Under the pieces are notes generated by a model. The model ran no database searches. It had not been told where the DNA came from and worked only from the letters and a program-made list of their open reading frames with translations. A stretch of 64,000 nucleotides of DNA, taken from assembly GCF_964194155.1 (NCBI RefSeq), contig NC_135887.1:16182001-16246000 (forward strand), written 5' to 3'. The translations under genes were made by a program, and so were the position numbers. Within the stretch, counting starts at the first letter, position 1, and every line of letters begins with the position of its first letter. Shown piece after piece: positions 11,860 to 60,384 of the stretch. This DNA is from Cetorhinus maximus. Lineage: Eukaryota.

Positions 11860-13377
11860 CTAAACAACCAGTGATACCAGCATGGTGAGAACAATTATGT
11901 AGAGGCTTATTCCTGTGCATACATGTGCTTTTGAGTTTGGGCTTTGCACTGTTGTCACATGTTGATTCACATGACTTGTTGTTCCAGTGATTCCATTCAT
12001 CTTTGGTGCAGTGGTCAGACTGGTAGGAAAAACCTTGATGGTTTTTGTAATGCTTCTTATTGCAGCATGAGAAGTGGTTGCCTTGATGGTAATTGACTCT
12101 GAGACTGTTGAGGATGTAGTGGATGCAGTTGACTTGTGACTTTTAATGGCCGTTGGCTGCAAGGTTGACCGTGACATTGATCCACTGGTTTGGCTTTTCA
12201 CAGTTCCATTTGATTTGTTGGCCCTTGTAATGGACTTGGTTGAAACTGTGCTGTTGGAGGTGAATTCCGGTGTTATAGTGGACATTGTGGGTGATGAAGG
12301 CCCATTAGTTGTATTATTAGTAACACTAGGTGTATTGTTTGAACTTTCAGTGCTACCTGTTTGAATGGAAATGTTTTTGGTTGCTATTTGTTCACTAACT
12401 GAGCTTGGTGCAGGCGAATTCAAACTAGCATTGGTGACTAACTGTGAAAAGGATGGAGTTCCAGTTTCTTGACTAGTTAAAGATTGAGATGTATTTGCTT
12501 CACTCTCTCTGGGCCTAGTACTTATTATTGTTTTGATTTCAGTCTGCTGACCTGTAAAAGCTGAAGTATGACTTGGTAGTGTAACGGTGCTTAGGTCAGA
12601 GTTGGCAAATTGAGCTTCTTCAGTACATGGGTATCCAAGAACGGTTGCTTTCACCGTCTTTACCCACGTCAACAGATAGAATTGACTGTCCTGAGAGTTG
12701 CATTGCCACAAATTTCCATAGAGTGTAATCAACTGCAAGTTAGTGAGTTGATCAAAAGTTCCATTTGGAATAAGCCTGAAACTGTTGTTGTTCAGGTACA
12801 ATTTTGAGAGTCTGCCTTGGCGAAAAGTGTCAGGGAGTATATTCTGCAAATTGTTGTGAGATAAATCTAACACCTCCAAGTTGTGGGGTGTGTTGGTTGG
12901 GATTGCCCAGAATCTATTTCCACTGAAGTTGAGCAATTTGAGGCTACTTAGTGTGTTTTTAATTAGATAAGATCTTTTAATCAAGTTGTTAGACAAATCC
13001 AGTGTTCTCAGGTTCCACTGAGTGACAGTGTCTCCCTTCTCAAGTACTTTGATTCTATTATTGGCAGCATAGATTTCCCAAAGCGCCCGTGGAAACTCAG
13101 TTGGCATACGCGTGAGCAGATTGTTGGATATGTCGAGGAACCTCAGGTTGGTGAAATTTTTCAGCTTATCGTCGAGATCTTTAATGTCATTGTGGGAAAT
13201 GTTTAGGGATATTATATTGTCCTGGATATTCTCTGGAAGTTCAGTTAAGCCTTTGCTTGAGCAGTCTACAAACCTGTCATTTTGTGTGCATGAACACTCT
13301 GAAGGACAGGTTGCTGTGTTTGAAGGTAGGATGGACAAAAGGGCCAAGAAGCAACCGTATAATGTGAAATAGCCCAT
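11860..13377 (-). CDS. OMG: Oligodendrocyte-myelin glycoprotein, 505 aa (LRR domain, Ser/Thr stalk, GPI signal)
   Basis: Signal peptide, LRRNT CPSECSC..VDCS, tandem LRRs including 'RALWEIYAANNRIKVLEKGDTVTQWNL', long S/T-rich stalk and a hydrophobic C-terminus. Lies antisense inside NF1 intron 27b, as OMG does in mammals. Confidence 0.95.
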   Translation of the reverse strand: MGYFTLYGCFLALLSILPSNTATCPSECSCTQNDRFVDCSSKGLTELPENIQDNIISLNISHNDIKDLDDKLKNFTNLRFLDISNNLLTRMPTEFPRALWEIYAANNRIKVLEKGDTVTQWNLRTLDLSNNLIKRSYLIKNTLSSLKLLNFSGNRFWAIPTNTPHNLEVLDLSHNNLQNILPDTFRQGRLSKLYLNNNSFRLIPNGTFDQLTNLQLITLYGNLWQCNSQDSQFYLLTWVKTVKATVLGYPCTEEAQFANSDLSTVTLPSHTSAFTGQQTEIKTIISTRPRESEANTSQSLTSQETGTPSFSQLVTNASLNSPAPSSVSEQIATKNISIQTGSTESSNNTPSVTNNTTNGPSSPTMSTITPEFTSNSTVSTKSITRANKSNGTVKSQTSGSMSRSTLQPTAIKSHKSTASTTSSTVSESITIKATTSHAAIRSITKTIKVFPTSLTTAPKMNGITGTTSHVNQHVTTVQSPNSKAHVCTGISLYIIVLTMLVSLVV

Positions 13378-14425
13378 TGTTTCCCTATAAAAGAAGATAA
13401 TTGCACATTGGTTTATTTGCCCTTCACAGCAACAAAAAAAATCATGTCTTTATTTAAAGAAAAATATAACTGTTTCCCCCCCATACCATGCAGCATTCTT
13501 GGGATTAGCAGGTGCACCCAGAATGGGAAATGAGCTGCACAAAGGAACAGGTTTACTTCACCACCCATCCCACCCCCTTCCGCACAAAACAAAATACTCT
13601 GTGGGAGTACCTGACCTCAGCTCAAATGAGGCCGTTCAATGAAATGCCTTGGCTGACAAGATAATGGCATAGAGAATCTCGAGCACATGCCTTGCATTCT
13701 AATACTCATGTGGCACAGTTCCAGGCTGGTGTTGGAGAGCGTCTCATGCCTGGATTTGTTTAAGAACCTAGATGTCTGAATGCTCCATTATTATTGCTTG
13801 TGAAACAACAACTAGATGCACAATGCTCTGGAATGAACAAATCAACAGACAGTGTTGCAGCAAAAGATTTGTGCAAATTAGTATGGCTGTGTTGTGATTA
13901 TGGACTTTCTTGCAATCCACCTATAATAAGACATTGCTGACGAAGAAAAATTATTTTTTAAATGTTTTAATTAATGTAACTTATTGTCCTATTTTAAAAA
14001 AGAAATCTGGATTTTTTAATGAAGGAAATTATATTATCAAAAAGCTTTACCATGACATTCATAAGATCAAGAAAGGCCACTCAAAATTAAATATTCACCC
14101 TTCACTAAACTGCCAGCTTAATGCACAAATCAGTTCTGTTCAGGTTAATATTCCTCTTTCAAACGATTTTTTAAAAAAAATGCAATGAGGGTTTAGTTCT
14201 GTGGAAAAAGGAAAATCCCGTAAAACGTCGTTTTATCCTACCGTTAACAGCAGAATTACAGCTGCTGCCCTTGGTTCTATATTTTCTAGCACGGCATAAA
14301 AATCCGATTTAGCTGGTCTCGACAAATTTGCTTTTCACTGCAGTCTCCAAGAAATGGTGCAAGTGAGAAAAATATTACAAAAAAGAGAAAAAGCAAAACC
14401 CAATAGAAAAACATAGTGTACTTAC

Positions 14426-23154: not shown

Positions 23155-25340
23155 CGAACATTCGAAATAGGAGGAGCACAAGTAGGCCATTTGGCCCCTT
23201 GAGTCTGCTTTGCCAGTCAATAAGATCGTGCCTGATCTGTTTGTGTTTCGAATTCCACATTCCCATCTGCCGCTGATAACCTTAGATTCTTGTTAAACAA
23301 GGAATTCAATCTACCTCTGCCTTAAAAATATTCAGCAACCCTGCCTCCACTGCCTTCTGAGACAGTGTTCCAAAGTGTCTCAACCTGTGGGAGAAAAAAA
23401 ATCTCCATCTCTGTCCTAATAAGGCGACCCCTAATTTTAAAACAGTGCCTCCTAGTTCTGGACTCACCCACAAGCGAAACATCCTTTCCACGTCCACCTT
23501 GTCAAGACCATTCAGGATCTTATATACTTCAATCAAGTCACCCCTCACTCTTCTAAACTCCAGTGGAAACAAGCCCAGCTTGCCCAGCCTCAAGACAACC
23601 CGCTTATTCTAGGTATCAATCTAGTCAACCTCCTCTGAACTGCCTCCAATGCATTTATGTACGTCCTTAAATAAGACCACCAAAATCTCTCACAGTATTC
23701 GAGATGCGGACTCACCAATGCCCTGTATAACTGAAGTATAACATCCTTATTTTTTATGTTTAATTCCTCTCTTAAAGAATAGCATTCTATTAGCCTTAAT
23801 TACTTGCTGTACCTGCATACTAAGTTTTTGTGACTCATGCACAAGAACACCTAGATCCCTCTGCACCTTGGAATTCTGCAGTTGTTCTCCATTTAGGTAA
23901 TACTGTGCATTTTTTATTCTTGCTGCCAAAGTGAACAACCTCACCTTTTCCCACATTTTACTCCATCTGTCAGATTTTTGACCACTCACTCAACTTATCT
24001 ATATCCATCTGCAAGCTCCTTATGTCGTCTTCACAACATACTTTCCTATCTATCCTTGTGTCGTCTGCAAATTTAGCTATCATGCCTTCGCTCCCCTCCT
24101 CTAAGTCATTGATGTAAATTGTAAAAAGTTGAGGCCCCAGCACAGACCCCTACGGGACTCCACTTGTCATATCCTGCCAATCAAAGACCCATTTATGCAT
24201 GCTCTGTTTTCTGCCAACCAGCCAATCTTCTATCCAAGCTAATATGTTACCCCCTACACTTGGGAGCTTTTATTTTCCGCAATAACCTTATCAAATGCTT
24301 TCTGGGAATCCAAGTACAGTACGTCTACAGGCTCCTCTCTATCCACCGCACGTTATTCCTCAAAGAACCCTAATAAATTGGTTAAACATGATTTCCCTTT
24401 CATAAAGCCATGCTGACTCTTCCCAATTACTTTGAGCTTTTCTAAATGCCCAGCTGCAACCTCTTGAATGATCAACTCTAACACCTTTCCCACGGCAGAC
24501 GTCAAGCTCACTGGCCTATAGTTTTCTATTTTTTGCCCCATCTCCTCCTTGAGCAGAGGGGTTATATTTGCTACTTTCCAGTCTGACGGAACCTTCCAAG
24601 AATCTAAGGAATTTTGGAAAATTAACACCAACGCACTTACTAACTCATTAGCCACCTCTTTTAAGACCCTAGGATGAAGTCCATCTGGACCCAGAGACTT
24701 GTCAGCCCGCAGCTCCATCAGTTTCTTCAGCATTATTTCCCTAGGGATTGTAATTTCACAATGTTCCTCTCTCTCTTCCACCTCCCGATTTACAGCTATT
24801 ACTGGAATGTTTTCTTTGTATCCCCTATAGTGAAGACAGGAACAAAATATTTATTCATTTCATGTGCCATTTCCTTCTTATCTACAAAAAACCCCCATTC
24901 TCACTCTCTAGAGGACCAGCACTCACTTTCCCTACTCTTTGCCTACTTAAATACCTGTAGAAACTCTTGGGGCAGAATTTTACGGCCCTGTTTCGGCGGG
25001 GGCAGGGCCACACAACGCGGCGAGACATTATAAACCCCATTGACTTCAGCGGGAACGTAAAATCCTGCTGCTGTAAAATTCTGCCCTTGCTGTCTGTTTT
25101 AACATTTGTAGCTAGCTTCCTTTCATATTTGACCTTTTAGTCATTCTCTCCTGCCCTTTATATTCTGACCAATCATCTAAACTGCCACTCATCTTTACTA
25201 AGTTATATGTTTTTTCCTCAAGTTTGATGCTTTCCCTAACTACTTTAGTTAACCATGGCTGTTGGGTCCTTCCCTTAGAATTTTTCTTTATAGCAGGAAT
25301 ATAGTTATTTTGAGTATTCTGAAATATCCCCTTAAATGTC
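23155..25340 (-). mobile_element. CR1 LINE fragment (RT region)
   Basis: GPDGLHPRVLKE, NYRPVSLTS, QHGFMKGKSCLTNL, QRDLGVLV and RGDLIEVYKI peptides. Confidence 0.92.
24970..25086. mobile_element. 117-bp MITE (PIF/Harbinger-like) inserted in CR1
   Basis: Perfect 14-bp TIRs GGGCAGAATTTTAC/GTAAAATTCTGCCC and 3-bp TSD TTG. Confidence 0.85.
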
Positions 25341-32233: not shown

Positions 32234-33307
32234 TTAGGCTTGCAGCTCAATGAGTGGTGGTGGAAAATCAGAATCATTCACAAGATCCAGAAAGTCGAAT
32301 GGAGGAAGGGGAAAGCTGGTGATGTTTGGATTTACATCAGGAACCTCCTGAGGGGAGCTAGGAGCATCTGTATCGGTTGCAGGCAGTGGAGCAGCTGGGT
32401 CATTGCCATTCAGTGAAACTTGTGCCTCAAGAGGAGGTGGTGGTGGAAAAACTTGGCTTTGTATTTCGTGTGTTGCACTGGTAGATGGTGTTTCTTTTTC
32501 TGTTTCATTTTCCACTTTGACTTCAGGCTCAATGAGCTTTTCTTCAATCTCTGATGAAGAAGCATTGATGATTCCTTCAGACTCCTGCACCTCCATGCTA
32601 TATTGATCAAGTAAGGATTCACGTTTAGATTTTTTAGATAAGAAGGTGGTGAGTGAGGGACGCTTTGCTGGAGCAACATTGTTATCATTGTCCTCAGCTG
32701 CATGTACACCATCTTCACTGGGGCCTGGACAAGCTCCTGCCCATGTGAGGTCCTGTACAGGATATTTTGAACATCTTCTCCTTATCAGAAGAGTGCATAT
32801 TATGATCAACATTAGCAACAATATCCCGCCGATGAAGTAAGCAACAATCTTGCCTGCAGTCGGGTTATCAGAGTATTTAATAGATGACTCAGTGGTTGAC
32901 GTAGACTTAATAGTGATTGGCGTAGACTTAATAGTGATTGGCGTAGACTTAATAGTGATTGGCATAGAAGTCTGATTTATATTTGTCACGTATGAAGTTG
33001 GTTGAGAGGGCGAACTCTGAATCGATTGTACCTCAGGTGAAATTTTTGATGTGAGCTGTGAAGTTGTAGAAGGTGTATTTGTCAAGATAGAAGTGTTGCT
33101 GGGAAGATCGCTTGAAGGTCCACTTGTTACAGTTGGCATACTTGTGATTATCAAGGGAGTTGCAGGGGTCAGGGTAGCTGAGTCGTGAAGTGAAGATGAT
33201 GTTGGGTTTGTTCTTTCTGATCCCACCGTTAACTGAAAGTTAGTTGTGGTTGTGCCCCCAAGGCCGTTTACCAGTAGTGCCAGTGTAGCCAGCTGGATTG
33301 CTTCCAT
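32234..33307 (-). CDS. EVI2B: EVI2B (CD361)-like type I membrane mucin, 357 aa
   Basis: Signal peptide, S/T/P-rich ectodomain, one TM (IVAYFIGGILLLMLIIICTLLI), juxtamembrane 'WAG..P' motif and acidic proline-rich tail. Located between OMG and EVI2A. Acceptor ttctttttag| at 33372. Confidence 0.88.
   Translation of the reverse strand: MEAIQLATLALLVNGLGGTTTTNFQLTVGSERTNPTSSSLHDSATLTPATPLIITSMPTVTSGPSSDLPSNTSILTNTPSTTSQLTSKISPEVQSIQSSPSQPTSYVTNINQTSMPITIKSTPITIKSTPITIKSTSTTESSIKYSDNPTAGKIVAYFIGGILLLMLIIICTLLIRRRCSKYPVQDLTWAGACPGPSEDGVHAAEDNDNNVAPAKRPSLTTFLSKKSKRESLLDQYSMEVQESEGIINASSSEIEEKLIEPEVKVENETEKETPSTSATHEIQSQVFPPPPPLEAQVSLNGNDPAAPLPATDTDAPSSPQEVPDVNPNITSFPLPPFDFLDLVNDSDFPPPLIELQA
32900..32963 (-). 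repeat. Three perfect 21-bp coding repeats (PITIKST) in the EVI2B stalk
   Basis: cgtagacttaatagtgattgg occurs three times in tandem. Confidence 0.95.
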
Positions 33308-33589
33308 CTTTCTTAGTTTTGAAGAGACAGGTTTTCAGAATCAAAACCAGGCTGCTGATGCCTATAAATACCTAAAAAGAATTAAGAACAGAAACATTTT
33401 TTAATAGTGTTCCTTTTTGGAATTGTGTGGTAAAAATTCTGTGTGTGTGTCTGTGTATAGAAGTTAAAGAAAAAGATGTACCATCAACACACTTCAAGTA
33501 TCAAGTTAATAAATTCATACTTTAAAGCAACTTTAAAAATGCCTGTTGCTAACTCGCAATAGTAACTTTTGTTAGTGTCCAAAGCCATT

Positions 33590-44374: not shown

Positions 44375-45320
44375 ATTAATGATTTAGATGAAGAGGCAGA
44401 GAGTAATGTGTCTAAATTTGATGATGATGCCAAACTAGGTAAAAGGTGAGCTGTGGCGAGGACATAGGCTGCAAAGAGATAGAGACAGGTTATGTGAGTG
44501 GGCACCAAGATGGCAGATGGAGTATAACGTAGGGAAGTGTGAAATTATTCAATTTGGTCGTAAGATTGAAGCAGAGTATATTTTTAAAGGTGAGAAATTA
44601 ATGTTCAGAGAGACTTGGGTGTGCTTGTACAAGGAATGCAGAAAGTTTAGCATGCTGGTGCAGTTAGCAATTAGGAAGGCTAAAGGCATGTTGGCCTTTA
44701 TTGCAAAGGGATTGGAGTACAAGAATAACAAAGTCTTGCTGGCACTGTACAGGGTTTTGGTGAGATTGCATCTGGTGTAGTATGTGCAATTTTGGCCCCC
44801 ACATTTAAAAAAGTGTATACTTGTATTGAAGGTGGGCACAGCGTAGGTTCACTAAGTTGGTCCCTGGGATGAGGGGGTTGTCCTGTGATGAGAGGCTGAG
44901 TAAATTGAGTTTATATTCTTTGGAGTTTAGAAGAATGGGAGGCAATCTCATTGAAACTTACAAAATGCTGAAGGGGTTTGATAGGGCAGACGCTGAGAGC
45001 TTGTTTCCATTGTTTGGGGAATCTAAAACACGGGGGCACGGTCTCTCGATAAGGGGCCAGTCATTTAGGACTGAGATATGGAGAAATTACTTCACTCAAA
45101 GGATTGTGAACCTTTGGAATTCTCTACCCCAGAGGGTTGTGGATCCATCGTTGAATACGTTTAAGGTTGGGACAGACAGATTTTTGGCACATCAGGGAAT
45201 AAAGGGATATGGGGAGTGGGCAGGAATAAGAAGTTGAAGCCCATTTTCAACCATGATCGTATTGAATAGCGGAGCAGGCTAGATGGGCCACGTGGTCTAC
45301 TCTTGCTCCTATTTCTCTAT
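44375..45320 (+). mobile_element. CR1 LINE 3' fragment
   Basis: MEYNVGKCEII and KTRGHGL..FTQRIVNLWNSLP peptides. Confidence 0.9.
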
Positions 45321-50104: not shown

Positions 50105-51346
50105 TTATATTAATGGCTCGGCTTCTTCCTCATCTTTTAATTCCATGGCTTCTTCCTTTGCCTCCAGAGCTTTGACCTCCTTCAGTGCGATATTGGTTTC
50201 TGCTGGCTCACCTGGAAGTTGGATGGGACCAGGGGACCATAGACTGGCTCCTTTAACAAAGTCAGAGTTGCTTCTTGTCGGTCGCTTTTTCATGTTGGCT
50301 TTGAGAATTGACACCCGACAGCCCAAGCCAATTGTTGATGCTAGTAGTATGGTACAGAGAATTATTAATATGCCTATTATGATTAAGTAAATCAAAATTT
50401 CTCTGCCTTTTGTTCTTTGAATTGAAAGAGAATGCTTATCATCTACATTAATTAACCGATGAAGATTTGTGTTTTCATTGGCTGTTGCAAGAGGATCGGG
50501 ACCCTCAGTAACGTATTTTTCCTCAGTCGTTAGAACGGGATCGGGACCCTCAGAAACGTATTCTTCCTCAGTCGTTAGAACGGGATCGGGACCCTCAGTA
50601 ACGTATTCTTCCTCAGTCGTTAGAACGGGATCGGGACCCTCAGTAACGTATTCTTCCTCAGTCGTTAGAACGGGATCGGGACCCTCAGTAACGTATTCTT
50701 CCTCAGTCGTTAGAACGGGATCGGGACCCTCAGTAACGTATTCTTCCTCAGTCGTTAGAACGGGATCGGGACCCTCAGTAACGTATTCTTCCTCAGTCGT
50801 TAGAACGGGATCGGGACCCTCAGTAACGTATTCTTCCTCAGTCGTTAGAACGGGATCGGGATCCTCAGTAACGTATTCTTCCTCAGTCGTTAGAACGGGA
50901 TCGGGACCCTCAGTAACGTATTCTTCCTCAGTCGTTAGAACGGGATCGGGACCCTCAGTAACGTATTCTTCCTCAGTCGTTAGAACGGGATCGGGACCCT
51001 CAGTAACGTATTCTTCCTCAGTCGTTAGAACGGGATCGGGACCCTCAGTAACGTATTCTTCCTCAGTCGTTAGAACGGGATCGGGACCCTCAGTAACGTA
51101 TTCTTCCTCAGTCGTTAGAACGGGATCGGGACCCTCAGTAACGTATTCTTCCTCAGTCGTTAGAACGGGATCGGGACCCTCAGTAACGTATTCTTCCTCA
51201 GTCGTTAGAACGGGATCGGGACCCTCAGTAACGTATTCTTCCTTAGTCGTTAGAAATGTTGGTGCACTGTTGACCTTGATTTGTGTAGCTAAAAGAGCAA
51301 AGATCACAGCTTCCACCAAGACAAGTTTTGTTATGTATTGATTCAT
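50105..51346 (-). CDS. EVI2A: EVI2A-like type I membrane protein, 413 aa, with repeat-expanded ectodomain
   Basis: TM and tail LIIIGILIILCTILLASTIGLGCRVSILK...KRPTRSNSDF..ASLW match the EVI2A signature. The first ATG (51346) lies 17 nt after acceptor ttgacag| (51364), followed by a signal peptide. The ORF track start at 51370 is a TTG inside the intron. Confidence 0.9.
   Translation of the reverse strand: MNQYITKLVLVEAVIFALLATQIKVNSAPTFLTTKEEYVTEGPDPVLTTEEEYVTEGPDPVLTTEEEYVTEGPDPVLTTEEEYVTEGPDPVLTTEEEYVTEGPDPVLTTEEEYVTEGPDPVLTTEEEYVTEGPDPVLTTEEEYVTEGPDPVLTTEEEYVTEDPDPVLTTEEEYVTEGPDPVLTTEEEYVTEGPDPVLTTEEEYVTEGPDPVLTTEEEYVTEGPDPVLTTEEEYVTEGPDPVLTTEEEYVTEGPDPVLTTEEEYVSEGPDPVLTTEEKYVTEGPDPLATANENTNLHRLINVDDKHSLSIQRTKGREILIYLIIIGILIILCTILLASTIGLGCRVSILKANMKKRPTRSNSDFVKGASLWSPGPIQLPGEPAETNIALKEVKALEAKEEAMELKDEEEAEPLI
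50492..51253 (-). repeat. Coding minisatellite, ~17 x 45 bp (EEEYVTEGPDPVLTT)
   Basis: Unit tcgggaccctcagtaacgtattcttcctcagtcgttagaacggga; 16 full units plus one partial, with only about four point substitutions in the whole array. Confidence 0.98.
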
Positions 51347-52002
51347 TATTCCTGGGCCTTCACCTGTCAATGAATCAGATAAAAAGAGGTTGTGATTTAT
51401 ATGTGTTTAATTCCAAAGCATTAGAATAGAACAGCAAAGAAATCAGTTGAATTCTTGAACCTGTCAGGCTTGGAATGTTTTCTTCCAATTACCCTCTATC
51501 TGTACTGACTATGCAACTAGTGCTGGAATCGGCAAAATGCAAAATACATATGTAAGACTTTCTGATACAATCCCACTCCTAAACTTATGGCTTGATGTAG
51601 CAGTTCTGTAAATTGAACAGATTTGTATACTTGGATTATACTTTTTGAATAGATTGAGACTCCATCCAGTAATTGAATGTGAAAAGTTACATTTCTGAGA
51701 GCCTGAAGGGGCTCTTTTATTTTGCCTATTGGATTGTCAGTCATAGCTGGGGTGCAAGTGCATTGTCCAAGTGGCTAGTGCGCAGACTTACAAATTGTGA
51801 GCAATGACTCACTGGGTACCAATGGAATTGACTCACCAGACTCTGAGGCAAAATTAGTCCCCTCGCGAAGATCAGGTACTCCCCAGTCGCGGAATGCTGT
51901 GATCTTCCTGGCTGCTCTGGCCCAGTCAAATGCTGAATGAGCTCACTAAGTCATCAAAGAGCCTAAGGGCTGGCATTGAAATGTGTATGTGGTCGAAAAA
52001 AG

Positions 52003-54560
52003 CTTTGGTCATGGGCAAGGATACCTCCTGATTCCCACGTATGCTCCTCTTCAGCTGATCAATCAGTACTCCTCCAAGTTGAACACCACTTGGAGGAATA
52101 ACCAAGGGTGACAAGGGCACAAATGTACTCTGGGTGGGGACTTCAATATTCATCACCAAGAGTGGCTCGGTAGCACCATCACAGACCAAGCTCGCCGAGT
52201 CCTAAAGGACATAGCTGCTGGGCAAGGTCTGTGGCAGGTGGTGAGGGAACCAAGAAGAGGGAAAGACATACCTGACCTCATCCTCACCAATCAGCCTGCT
52301 GCCGATGCATCTGTCCATGACAGTATTGGTAGGAGTGACCACCACACGGTCCTTGTGGAAACAAAGTCACATCTTCACATTGAGGATACCCTCCATCATG
52401 TTGTGTGGCACTATCACTGTGCTAAATGGAATAGATTTTGAACAGATCTAGCGATTCGAGACTGGGCATCCATGAGGCTCTGTGGGCCACCAGCAGCAGC
52501 AGAATTGTACTCGATCACAATCTGTAACCTCATGGCCCACCATATACACCACTCTACCATTACCATGAAGCCAGGGATCAACCCTGGTTCAAAGAAGAGT
52601 GCAGGAAGGCATGCCAAGAGCAACACCAGGCATACCTAAGAATACGGTGTCAACCTGGTGAAGCTGCATCACAGGACTACTTGCATGCCAAACAGCATAA
52701 GCAACAAGTGACAGTCTGAGCTAAGTGATTCCACAACCAATGGATCAGACCTAAGCTCTGCAGTCCTGCCACATCCAGTCGCGAATGATGGTGGGCAATT
52801 AAACAGCACACTGGAGGAGGAGGCTCCACAAATATCCCCATCCTCAATGATGGAGGAGCCTAGCACATCAGTGCAAAAGGTAAAAATGAAGCATTTGCAA
52901 ACATCTTCAGTCAGAAGTGCCGAGTGGATGATCCATCTTGGCCTCCTCCAGAGGTCTCCAGATGCCAGTCTTCAGCCAATTTGATTCACTCCATGTGATG
53001 TCAAGAAACGGCTGAAGGCGCTGGATACTGCAAAGGCTATGGGCCCTGACAATGTTCTGGCACTAGTACTGAAGACTTGTGCCCCAGAACTTCCCACACC
53101 CCTAGCCAAGTAGTTCCAGTACAGCCTGGACACTGGCATCTACCTGGCTATGTGGAAAATTGCCCAGGTATGTCCTGTACAGAAAAAAAGAGGACAAATC
53201 CAACCCAGCCAATTACCACCCTATTAGTCTACTCTTGATAATCAGTAAAGTGATGGAAGATGTCATCAACAGTGCTATCAAAGGGCACTTGCTTAGCGAT
53301 AACCTGCTCACTGACAGTTTTTTTTTTACAGTTTGGGTTCCGCCAGGGCCACTCAGCTCCTGACCTCATTACAGCCTTGGTTCAAACATGGACAAAAGAG
53401 CTGAACTCACGAGGTGAGGGGAGAGTGACTGCCCTTGACGACATCAAGGCCACATTTGACCGAGTGTGGCATCAAGGAGCCCCAGCAAAACTGGAATCAG
53501 TGGGAATCAGGGATATAACTCTGGTTGGAGTCGTACCTAGCACACAAGAAGATGGTTGTGGTTGTTGGAGGTCAGTCATCTCAGCTTCAGAACATCACTG
53601 CAGAAGTTCCTCAGGGTAGTGTCCTTGGCCCAGCCATCTTCAGCTGCTTCATCAATGACCTTCCTTCCACCATAAGGTCAGAAGTGGGATGTTTGCTGAT
53701 TGCATAATGTTCAGAACCATTCGCAACAACTCAGATACTGAAGCAGTCTATGGTCAAATGCAGCAAGACCTGGACAACATCCAGGCTTGGGCTGACAAGT
53801 GGCAAGGAACACTTGCACCACAAAGTGTCAGGCAATGACCATCTCCAACAAGAGAGAGTCCAACTGTCGCCCCATGATGTTCAGTGGCATTACCATCACT
53901 GAATCCCCCAAAATCAACATCCTAGGGGTTACCGTTGACCAGAAACTGAACTGGACTAGCCAAATAAATACTGTGGCTGCAACAGCAGGTCAGAGGTTAG
54001 GAATAATGTGATGAGTAACCCACCACCTGACTCCCCAAAGCCTGTCCACCATCTGCAAGGCACAAGTCAGGGGTGTGATGGAATACTCCCCACTGCCTGG
54101 GTGAGTGCAACTCCCATAACACTCAAGAAGCTTGACAGCATCCAGGACATAGCAGCCCGCTTTGGCACCACACCCACAAACATTCACTCCCTCCACCACC
54201 GACGCACAGGAGCAGCCTACAAGGTGCACTGCAGGAATTCACCAAGGCTCCTTTGGCAGCACCTTCCAAACCTACGACCACTACCATCTAGAGGGACAAG
54301 GGTAGCAGATACATGGCAACACCACCACCTGCAAGTTCCCCTCCAAGCCACACACCATCCTGACTTGGAAATATATCGCCATTCCTTCGCTGTCACTGGG
54401 TCAAAATCCTGGAACTCTCTTCCCAACAGCAGTGTGGATGTACCCATACAACATGGACTGCAGCGGTTCAAGAAGGCAGCTTACCACCACCTCCTTAAGG
54501 GCAACTAGGGATGGGCAATAAATGCTGGCCCAGCCAGTGAAGTGCACATCCTGTGAATTA
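52003..54560 (+). mobile_element. 5'-truncated degenerate copy of the same LINE family
   Basis: DLILTN..SDHH, NYHPISLL, QFGFR, PQGSVLGPAIFSCFINDL and KSWNSLP motifs spread across frameshifted ORFs. Confidence 0.9.
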
Positions 54561-54754
54561 ATTTTTTTTAAAATTGGGTTATCAGTGTCTGTATCAGACA
54601 GAGCACAGCCAGACAATGCTGCTACTACTCTATCCTACCTGCTATTGCACCAATATGAAATTTCCACTGATGGGAGAATTAAAGTTAATTATGAGCAGTT
54701 TTGTGTTGTGCTCTTTCAGTTACTGGGTTCAGGTTGCGTCAGAATCCTGTATGG

Positions 54755-55549
54755 ACCCCACCCAGAGTACATTCTGTGCCCTTACCACCCTCAGTGCTTC
54801 CTCCAAGTGTTGTTCAACATGGAGGCACACTGATTCATCAACTGAGGGAGGGTGTTGCGTGGTAATCAGCAGGAGGTTTCCTTTCCTTGAGACTTCATGG
54901 GGCCCGGAGTCTATGTTGAGGACTCCCAGGGCAACTCCCTCCAGACTGTATACCACTGTACCGGTGGGACAAGACATACGCAGGGAAGGCGATGATGGTG
55001 TCTGGGATGTTATCTGTAAGGCATGATTCCATGAGGATGACTATGTCAGGCTGTTGCGTGACTAGTCTGTGAGACAGCTCTCCCAATTTTGGCACTAGCC
55101 CCCAGATGTTAGTAAGGAGGACTTTGCAGGGTCGACAGAGCGGCGATTGCCATTGTCATTTCTGGTGCCTACATTGATGTCACATGGTCCATCCAGTTTC
55201 ATTCATTTTTTGTGATTTTGTAGTGTTTTGTTACAACTGAGTGGTTTGCTAGGCCATTTCAGAGGGCATGTAAGAGTCAACCACATTGCTGTGGCTCTGG
55301 AGTCACGTGTAGCCAGACCAGGTAAGGACGACAGATTTCCTTCCCTCAAGGACATTAGTGAACCAGATGGATTTTTACAACAGTCGACAATGGTTTCATG
55401 GCCATCGTAAGACTTCTAATTCCAGATTTTTATTGAATTCAAATTCCACCATCTGCTGTGGCAGGATTTGAACCTTGGTCCCCAAAGCGTTACCCTGGGA
55501 CTCTGGGTCACTGGTCCAGTGACAATGCCACCGTACCATCACCTCCCCC
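54755..55549 (-). mobile_element. 5' fragment (tRNA-like head + endonuclease start) of the same LINE family
   Basis: A-box-like 55528-55538, B-box GGTTCAAATCC 55464-55474, peptide PKLGELSHRLVTQQPDIVILMES. Confidence 0.85.
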
Positions 55550-57464
55550 AAAATGAAAGAAGTGTTCCTTTGCCCACCACCAGCAAACTTCATATCAAAA
55601 AGGGCAATGTTTTTGTTAAAAAGTAGTCAGTTATAAATAAAATTCGGCTTCTCTGTGTACATTATGCCATAGAAGTAAATAATTTAACTGTTCAGGTCAA
55701 AAAAATGTGCATTATGCAAAATAGAGCATGCATTGAAAACTAAACAAAAATGGAAAATTAAATCATAGTTACGGTTTGTAAAATGGATTCCTTGTTTAGA
55801 TCATACCTGAACTTAATTGCGCAAAATAAATGTGAAGACTGAAAATTGGTATAACGGTGTTATGCAATCCTGAGTATTGTAGCACTTTGCATCGCAGCTG
55901 CTGTTCTGACTCAATCTTAGTTTCCCAGACCATGATGGACATTCAAGAGCCGACAATTATATGCACAGCAGTGATGATGTCGTTAAACAATGTCTATACT
56001 TCCCCTCTTGAATTCCCTATTGGAAGAAATGCAAGGGGAGATCAGTTGATCTCTTCAGAGCAAGATGGAGACACATAGGTATTGATGTTCGTGATGAGCA
56101 TCATTGGAGTATTTGAGGGTGTGTAAGTAGACAATGCACTCTCGTCATCAGGAAGGTTTGTTTGGGACAGACAGCCTCAACAAGGGAGGCTTTTAAAAAA
56201 AAAAATCAGTGTGGAATGAAAGCAGGGCTTTAACATTGACCCAAAAACAGCCAAGCTACTTATTTCCCTATTACTGCTCCAATTTTTCTCCTTCCCAAAC
56301 TACAGGTTCTGTGATTAGCTATTATGGAAGGAATAGTTACTATCAGGGTAAGCTGTCCTTTGTGTTTCTCTCTCTCCTTCACAAACCACCTCCAATTCTC
56401 AAATTTTTCTATGCCTGTTCTGATATCTAGTTTGAAATTTTCTGAACGACCAGACAAGTCAAACAAACCATGGTTTCCTCCAGTTCTTCAATATTTAACC
56501 TCCAAAAGCAGAGGTGTTAATGTTTACAATTGATAAAAAAAAACTACCTTTACACTCTCTACTAAACCAACGATTTGGTTGTGAGAGTGAATGCAGCAAA
56601 TGTTTGTTAACCCAGAAAAAAGTAACAGCTATATCCTACCTCCAGCAGCTCCTGATCCATTCAACTCTTTTCTAATCAGTGTAGGTGAAGAGTACTCCAA
56701 AGCTCAGTGGTTTTGCCCAGTTGTTCTTCAAGATGAGTGACTTTATTAGTGTAGACGCAGCAGATTATGACTAATAAACACTTTGCCCAATCACCTCTTC
56801 TGCATGTACATTGCACCACTACACTTGGCACTGATGACGTTGATGGACCACGGAACGTTAATCCATTTCCTAATCAGCGTATGCAATTTCCAAATTGAGC
56901 TGTGAGGCATTTTTGAAAACTTTGGTTTAAAGAAAGCCCTACACTAGCTGCAGGAAGAGTTTTCGTGTGTGTAGGGAGGAGTGGCAAAGAAAGCAAAAAT
57001 AGAAGATGCTGCAAGTGCGAAAATTGTTAAATGTGAAAGCAAGATGAGTCAATGGTTTTGAGTCTCGGGCCTTAGCCAGATTGGAAATTTATAGAAAATG
57101 ACAGTCCTTAAGACGGGTGGGAGACAACAAATAGAAGTCAGATCTAGCCTTCTCATCTTTGTCAATTACTGGATTCAACCAAGACACAAAAGGAACATGG
57201 ATATGTATCAGATGGCTATGTAAAGAAAATTCATTCTTCCTGTTAAAATTGAAATGGCCTTATTGACTTCAGATATGTAGCCCACCCCAATGTCACTGTG
57301 TGATTTTAATGTAGTGCTAGTGTGGGAATTCACTGGAATAGCCTTTAAGATCTATCTCTACTGGTTATGATTTTCTTAAAAATTAACCTGCGTTAAAATT
57401 ACACGTTTATTTTAGAACTTAAAAAAATCAATTTACTTCCATTAGGTTGCAGAAAGACATGGGT

Positions 57465-59800: not shown

Positions 59801-60304
<504 letters not shown>

Positions 60305-60384
60305 TGAATAGTAGGATTTGATTCCAAGTGTCTGAAGCCAAACGGTATTGTACAAAAATCAATAGGACTGCAGAAATTCACAAC

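Follow-up and report, generated by a model that had tools for sequence, protein, structure and literature searches.

A tandem acidic-tyrosine repeat in the ectodomain of elasmobranch EVI2A, a candidate multivalent sulfotyrosine stalk

Known sulfotyrosines are mostly single or in clusters of two or three within six residues (PMC9372746), and the arrangements described comprise single sites, tight clusters and irregular acidic tracts (PMC9372746, PMC7310474). The substrate rule of the tyrosylprotein sulfotransferases (TPST) is an acid at position −1 and three to five acids within ±5 of the tyrosine (PMC6272617, PMC5562738). Optimal substrates combine Asp at −1 with an acid at +1 (PMC5562738, PMC9372746), and a Lys at −1 would block sulfation (PMC6272617). 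Known arrays of acidic tyrosines bind heparin-binding proteins, collagen or thrombin exosites (PMC9372746), and calcium sequestration has been proposed as a role for the array of osteoadherin (PMC7310474). In PSGL-1, the glycosylated Thr lies in the motif T[D/E]PP[D/E] in 12 of 14 mammals, the horse has a variant of it, and horse PSGL-1 rolled on human L-selectin and not on P-selectin (PMC2174952). The site of the mouse protein comprises Tyr13, Tyr15 and Thr17; the Tyr at −4 relative to the Thr was important, unlike that at −2 (PMC3102115).

EVI2A is an orphan with almost no known function. In chicken B cells it localises to the plasma membrane, close to the BCR (PMC4031500), and it has been reported in B cells and in murine leukaemia contexts (PMC4031500, PMC10826067, PMC7692384). 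The human NF1 gene hosts EVI2A, EVI2B and OMG, nested on the opposite strand (PMC7692384), and a further study treats mammals only (PMC6896060). Our literature search, which covered few subscription journals, returned no work that connects EVI2A with sharks, with tyrosine sulfation or, through ancestry, with PSGL-1. Here, we describe an EVI2A gene of the basking shark in which most of the ectodomain is a tandem repeat with one acidic tyrosine per unit. The comparison of sequences points to a real elasmobranch-wide remodelling of this orphan membrane protein, likely into a multivalent sulfotyrosine mucin stalk.

The EVI2A locus and its array of 17 units

The window is a stretch of 64,000 nucleotides of Cetorhinus maximus (contig NC_135887.1, positions 16,182,001 to 16,246,000), and coordinates are counted from its first base. 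The open reading frame (ORF) at 50105..51346 on the minus strand, a single exon encoding 413 aa, is shark EVI2A by Pfam and by gene position. Residues 315–371 match the Pfam EVI2A family (PF05399) with 45.5 bits for a cut-off of 25, and BLASTP gives 53% over 75 aa with the annotated EVI2A of Callorhinchus. The neighbourhood has the arrangement of human NF1: an OMG-like ORF (11860..13449; leucine-rich repeats [LRR] plus a Ser/Thr-rich part), an EVI2B-like ORF (32234..33334) and EVI2A are all on the minus strand, and an NF1 exon with CRAL-TRIO/Sec14 and PH_NF1 domains in Pfam is on the plus strand (59801..60307). The EVI2B-like ORF encodes a single-pass mucin without significant Pfam match, which we take to be EVI2B from its position in the known gene order. 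The identity of the gene and the conserved transmembrane (TM) and tail region, both asserted in the initial annotation from the sequence alone, are thus borne out. In a tree of 17 proteins built on the columns of the signal peptide and the TM/tail, the window protein falls among the elasmobranchs (83/81, open fork); its branching order within them is left open by the tree and support is modest. Heptranchias was omitted from this tree because its gene model lacks the TM.

A few other elements of the region deserve mention. The EVI2B-like ORF contains its own in-frame repeat of 21 bp (3.7 copies, 32891–32968), without acidic Tyr. ORF fragments at 903–1589, 24353–24850, 44830–45237 and 53260–54508 resemble LINE remnants, presumably CR1-type reverse transcriptases from their look. 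A Ser/Val-rich ORF on the plus strand (50463–51341) was considered as the true gene and rejected as an antisense shadow of the repeat, because the splice signals and the Pfam match sit on the minus strand.

By hydropathy, the protein has a predicted signal peptide, one TM helix and a cytoplasmic tail. The signal peptide (~aa 1–27, 51266..51346), also called by the initial annotation, is compatible with the hydropathy of the N-terminus (aa 5–23, the only criterion used) and resembles the N-termini of the orthologs; its cleavage site was placed by eye. The repeat follows as 17 in-register units of 45 bp (aa 33–287, 50486..51250). Then come a non-repeat juxtamembrane stalk, as read from the ORF translation (aa 288–316, 50399..50485), and the TM helix with a conserved Cys331 (~aa 317–341, 50324..50398), delimited by Pfam, hydropathy and alignment. 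In the cytoplasmic tail (50105..50323), the alignment reveals a basic juxtamembrane stretch, a conserved Asn360 and Trp370, and an acidic end.

Tandem Repeats Finder places the 45-bp array at 50493–51255 with 17.0 copies and 99% matches, in frame within the ORF, in line with the roughly 17-fold in-frame repeat first described. The typical 15-residue unit contains one acidic Tyr, three Thr, two Pro and about five acids. The DNA is identical in 13 of the 17 units; units 1, 9 and 16 each deviate at a single base and unit 17 at five. Even when up to 18 mismatches in 45 were allowed, no further copy was found elsewhere in the 64-kb window. The observed/expected ratio of CpG is 1.37 in the array versus 0.27 in the window. 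These 17 near-identical, CpG-rich copies look like a recent local expansion of a variable-number tandem repeat (VNTR) that would alter length and valency, and we read the 17-copy array as something other than the origin of the acidic-Tyr motif itself.

The array is predicted to be lumenal and lacks nearby Cys and N-glycan sequons. The only Cys of the protein, 331 and 343, lie in or just past the TM, and no sequon is present in the ectodomain, as had been claimed. The statement that each Tyr has three upstream Glu holds for 15 of the 17 units and fails in unit 1 (KEEY) and unit 17 (EEKY). A lumenal position and the absence of nearby Cys and N-glycans are also expected of a TPST substrate. An acid, always Glu, precedes the Tyr in 16 of the 17 units, and with three to five acids within ±5 these tyrosines have the TPST-preferred context attributed to them. 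The highest-affinity form is not the one found in the unit, which has Glu in place of the Asp at −1 and Val in place of the acid at +1, and the Tyr of unit 17 is predicted to be unsulfated because of its Lys at −1. From this context, the tyrosines of the array are probably sulfated.

The array also matches a Pfam ice-binding family (LbR_Ice_bind, PF21300) at aa 177–239, with 31.7 bits for a cut-off of 30, and Heptranchias is matched as well. This could suggest that the repeat folds as a β-solenoid, similar to the β roll of grass antifreeze proteins. Yet the family matches only 2 of the 34 aligned members, each unit lacks an Asn ladder and contains two Pro besides its roughly five acids, and the search of a chondrichthyan profile against the sequences of the PDB gave 0 matches at E-values up to 10. 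We rejected the match as inconsistent across orthologs and likely driven by composition, and consider a solenoid highly improbable.

Contigs from 4 of the 19 sequencing runs listed were aligned to positions 50800–51750. The one presumed RNA run labelled with the window's own species (X19) contained hardly any sequence words of the region, which says nothing about expression. Two of these runs (X1 and X6) are from two studies with two organism labels, and their contigs, mostly 95–99% alike, come from close relatives and not from C. maximus. The X1 and X6 contigs stop matching at 51365, and their loose end corresponds to an upstream exon (3 mismatches in 26) that ends at 56640 and is succeeded by a GT on the minus strand. 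Because the loose end maps across a GT–AG junction, we took these contigs to come from spliced RNA, and the RNA origin of both runs is itself deduced from this splice. The junction delimits the 3' part of exon 1 (56640..56732, minus), a GT donor at 56639–56638, an intron of 5,276 nt (51364..56639) with its AG acceptor at 51365–51364, and a leader of 17 nt that opens exon 2 ahead of the ATG (51347..51363). One contig of X1 leads from exon 1 across the signal-peptide sequence and 59 bases into the repeat, and contigs of X1, X4 and X6 pass from the repeat into the flank that follows it. The repeat is transcribed in close relatives of the window's species: a check on whether it is spliced out, or missing from transcripts and reads, found it in the spliced contigs of X1 and X6.

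The contigs bridge into and out of the array and none spans it entirely, as expected for collapsed unitigs. In the DNA run X15, which possibly is the source sample and in which depth is a rough measure of copy number, the unitig of the repeat is covered 10.6 times as deeply as the unique flank, versus 14.1 expected from the window; this ratio is 4.7–7.4 in the relatives. An array of 17 copies over-expanded by the assembly, or lying outside the mRNA, would fit the missing contig across the array and the lower than expected depth. Against this, the depth in X15 still implies ten or so copies or more, both junctions of the array are bridged by spliced contigs, and independent assemblies of eight species carry the unit. 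We regard this explanation as very improbable, and an assembly artefact as an unlikely source of the array. The transcript leader has one further peculiarity: an ATG in exon 1 starts an upstream ORF of 12 codons whose stop overlaps the start codon of EVI2A (56660–56640 and 51363–51346, minus). The loose end of X1 has GTG at the position of this ATG, and the upstream ORF may be species-specific.

The unit across vertebrate EVI2A

The set of EVI2A homologs comprises 3 orthologs from a first search, 57 matches of a HMMER scan and one protein from a last search. Ten of the 56 new scan matches are named; the other 51 matches include five named ones, from coelacanth, lungfish, two teleosts and a rodent. 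Among these 51 EVI2A-like matches, 25 were confirmed as Pfam EVI2A and the remainder were classed as bony-vertebrate-type by their appearance. A search for homologs of shorter length returned 33 candidates, none of which passed. The elasmobranch profile retrieved 7 proteins. All were EVI2A, including a new one, and neither PSGL-1 nor an unrelated bearer of the repeat was among them; this search is insensitive because it missed two known members. In the ESM Atlas, the TM/tail of Callorhinchus gave scores of 0.75–0.77 to EVI2A clusters, DUF4689 and one unnamed family, which are leads only, and no usable match when the EVI2A and DUF4689 families were skipped.

The 15-residue unit is present in all eight other elasmobranch EVI2A proteins retrieved, six from sharks (Scyliorhinus canicula, S. 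torazame, Chiloscyllium plagiosum, C. punctatum, Heterodontus francisci and Heptranchias perlo) and two from rays (Pristis pectinata and Narcine bancroftii). These species represent six orders, in both sharks and rays. Most of the proteins are annotated as 'uncharacterized' or 'mucin-4-like'. The seven orthologs that were scored have 5–8 units each, versus 17 in the window. The proposal that this particular lineage had converted EVI2A must hence be revised: the unit occurs in every elasmobranch sampled, and the copy number alone is local. The related check, whether relatives lack the acidic-Tyr motif, gave its presence in every one of the eight.

Outside elasmobranchs the picture changes. The EVI2A of the chimaera Callorhinchus lacks the 15-residue unit; it has a pair of acidic Tyr close to the N-terminus, followed by a Tyr-free repeat of ~19 residues (P0009/P0062). 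The pattern [DE]YxT occurs 0 times in 49 bony-vertebrate-type ectodomains (4,390 aa), in agreement with the earlier statement that mammalian EVI2A has no such array. When an acidic Tyr is defined by an acid at −1, at least three acids and at most one basic residue, 49 of the 70 ectodomain Tyr qualify in eight elasmobranch proteins, window included, versus 5 of 69 in the 51 others, where they are isolated residues in four proteins. The simplest reading of these sequences is that the acidic-Tyr array arose on the elasmobranch stem.

Several individual sequences have features of their own. In two fish-like EVI2A (P0030 and P0048), the N-terminal part contains one or two acidic Tyr that may be left over from an ancestral site. 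The two Chiloscyllium proteins (P0007 and P0065) show a higher-order repeat in which full and shortened units alternate, with His/Met-rich linkers. Most of the TM helix is missing from the model of Heptranchias perlo (P0008), either by an error of assembly or gene model or by a real deletion. In a fish protein of 673 aa (P0043), an EVI2A-like part is joined to an OMG-like LRR protein, probably by a fused gene model or read-through.

To measure conservation within the unit while avoiding circularity, we located the units in seven orthologs with each column ignored in turn. Retained in 44 of 48 units (0.92), the Tyr is the best kept of the 15 columns and the majority residue in all seven species. 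The next best kept columns are Thr at +2 (43 of 50), Thr at −4 and Pro at +5 (37 of 49), and Glu/Asp at −1 is found in 43 of 50. The linker matches the window in just 2 of 50 units at +8 and in 3 of 50 at +9. Identity at linker positions +7 to +9 is 0.62 within species and 0.22 between them, versus 0.67 and 0.56 for the core. The pattern in the aligned units is one of concerted evolution around a retained core, with the linkers homogenised in each species and Glu-Glu-[Glu/Asp]-Tyr-x-Thr-x-x-Pro kept. Since the units descend from one ancestor, the 44 retained tyrosines are not independent tests, and the fair count is seven of seven species. Across elasmobranchs, the acidic Tyr is apparently selected. 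All seven differences within the array in the close relatives fall outside positions −2 to +3 and +5, although numbers are small. The catsharks speak against a strict requirement: most of their units carry Lys at +3, and their ectodomains are only weakly acidic. As for the gene itself, 9 of the 10 coding differences listed for close relatives at 50892–51329 are non-synonymous; they are too few for calling selection, and the 5' part of EVI2A may evolve fast.

Candidate roles of the stalk

We propose that elasmobranch EVI2A could be a Golgi-sulfated, O-glycosylated and extended stalk with many PSGL-1-like sites, likely on leukocytes, and put the chances of this reading at about even. TPST would sulfate up to 16 Tyr in the Golgi, and GalNAc would be added to the Thr at +2 (Thr-x-x-Pro) and to the Thr pair. 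At an assumed 0.25 nm per residue, the stalk would extend over ~70 nm. Expression in leukocytes is extrapolated from the chicken and mouse data. Binding to selectins or to basic heparin-binding proteins, e.g., chemokines, would then be based on avidity. A multivalent binding role dependent on sulfotyrosine could, judged from these data, equally well be right or wrong.

The main rival to such a role is that the array is a charged mucin spacer and nothing else, steric and anti-adhesive like CD43-type sialomucins or SHREK-type virion inhibitors, with a copy number that drifts as in any VNTR and a Tyr sulfation that, if it takes place, may be incidental. Extended mucins do act sterically (PMC8147968). 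The ectodomains of all EVI2A retrieved are of low complexity and poorly conserved, the stalk of Callorhinchus is filled with a repeat devoid of Tyr, catshark units have many Lys, and the window array seems young given its identical units and its CpG content. But a spacer needs no aromatic residue, and Tyr is the best-kept column in all species scored, in a core that persists while the linkers diverge. A mucin spacer also fits poorly with the Ser+Thr fraction of elasmobranch ectodomains (0.17–0.24), below that of most bony-vertebrate-type ones (mostly 0.25–0.5). We consider the spacer a possible, if somewhat unlikely, explanation.

Charge could also have been selected for another purpose, apart from leukocyte adhesion. 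The net charge is −81 for the window ectodomain and −82 for the 255-aa array. Such a polyanion might serve lumenal phosphorylation, the binding of Ca2+ or mineral, or the binding of a protease exosite. Lumenal kinases include VLK-type enzymes, which act on Tyr, and Fam20C-type enzymes, which act on Thr-x-Glu. The ligands of known acidic Tyr arrays (collagen, heparin-binding proteins and thrombin exosites; PMC9372746) and the calcium sequestration proposed for osteoadherin (PMC7310474) are precedents for it, and the RNA-type runs carry no tissue label that would point to leukocytes. The reports of EVI2A in B cells and murine leukaemia contexts speak against it. So do the two catsharks, with ectodomain net charges of −13 and −10: because they keep the Tyr and lose most of the charge, bulk charge is a poor candidate for the selected property. 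The term 'highly anionic' used in the initial annotation is hence apt for the window protein and cannot be extended to the family. Overall, a polyanion with such a purpose seems to us rather improbable.

The PSGL-1-like stalk proposed above would have consequences either way. A clade-wide, apparently selected acidic-Tyr repeat is the first sequence-level handle on a possible past role of the EVI2A ectodomain. If the protein did bind selectins or chemokines, it would act as a naturally multivalent sulfotyrosine ligand, might account for the rolling and homing of leukocytes in cartilaginous fish, and would connect EVI2A with PSGL-1. If there were no binding, it would still be a neat example of a coding VNTR whose core is conserved.

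Comparison with PSGL-1 and other known proteins

Like PSGL-1, the window protein is a type I mucin with a stalk of variable-number repeats (247–322 aa in mammalian PSGL-1, 289 aa here) and with acidic Tyr shortly ahead of a Thr followed by [D/E]-x-P-[D/E]. The strict motif T[DE]PP[DE] has 0 occurrences in all EVI2A-like sequences examined, which include 10 chondrichthyan ectodomains. The relaxed T[DE]xP[DE] occurs 16 times in the window protein, 5 in Heterodontus, 5 in Heptranchias, 6 in each Chiloscyllium, 4 in Pristis and 3 in Narcine, versus none in 49 other EVI2A-like ectodomains. The variant of the horse PSGL-1 motif is also present in units of Pristis. Catsharks have one and no occurrence of the relaxed motif and appear to have eroded the acidic-Tyr motif.

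The Tyr of the shark unit occurs only at the −2 spacing from the Thr, unlike the Tyr pair of mouse PSGL-1. The mouse spacing, Tyr-x-Tyr-x-Thr, is found at the N-terminus of Callorhinchus EVI2A, once and as the sole instance among the 59 ectodomains counted. One UniRef entry of this protein is named P-selectin glycoprotein ligand 1, with no basis given for the name. Because of the Thr at +2 followed by [D/E]-x-P-[D/E] and of the similar spacing in Callorhinchus, the unit works on paper as a repeated PSGL-1 binding site. There is real evidence against this likeness: the strict motif is missing throughout, horse PSGL-1, with a variant motif of the type found in the shark unit, did not roll on human P-selectin, and the −2 Tyr, the sole spacing of the shark unit, did not matter in the mouse. 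PSGL-1 has one N-terminal site with 1–3 acidic Tyr, then decamer repeats that are Tyr-free in the mouse, whereas in the window protein the putative site is the repeat itself, with 17 Tyr spaced by 15 residues. A Cys at the start of the TM, like the juxtamembrane dimerisation Cys of PSGL-1, is present in 17 of the 34 aligned EVI2A proteins, including Heterodontus and Callorhinchus; the window protein has Tyr320 in this column. Finally, the gene is in the EVI2A locus. The window protein is EVI2A. It is not to be filed as PSGL-1, because its Thr motif is not the strict one, its putative sites are many and not confined to the N-terminus, and it lacks the juxtamembrane Cys.

The TM ends of EVI2A and PSGL-1 may resemble each other, and NF1 and SELPLG may lie in a paralogous block (17q11/12q24). 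A search of the literature for this resemblance or this paralogon gave nothing usable. EVI2A could conceivably be an unrecognised ancient paralog of PSGL-1, with an ancestral N-terminal selectin site that was lost in bony vertebrates, stayed single in Callorhinchus and was amplified in elasmobranchs into a selectin ligand with 5 to 17 sulfotyrosine/O-glycan sites, the avidity of which would be set by copy number. We view this scenario, taken as a whole, as doubtful.

With bony-vertebrate EVI2A, the window protein shares the matching TM and tail, the nesting in NF1, the EVI2B-like and OMG neighbours, and the type I single-pass layout. The ectodomains differ: those of bony-vertebrate type are Ser/Thr-rich, often N-glycosylated and near neutral, whereas that of the window is a repeat of acidic Tyr without sequon. 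The CD43/CD34-type sialomucins of the SHREK group also present an extended mucin-like stalk on a single-pass protein, and an acidic Tyr in each repeat, as in shark EVI2A, is not a trait named for them in the abstract describing the group (PMC8147968). The many Tyr in an acidic and flexible N-terminal tract recall fibromodulin, osteoadherin, lysyl oxidase and GPIHBP1. In these proteins, which are secreted or GPI-anchored, the tracts are irregular and terminal and have up to ~6–9 sulfations. Window EVI2A differs from them, and from the usual spacing of sulfotyrosines, in having one Tyr per 15 residues in a regular VNTR that makes up nearly the whole ectodomain of a transmembrane protein.
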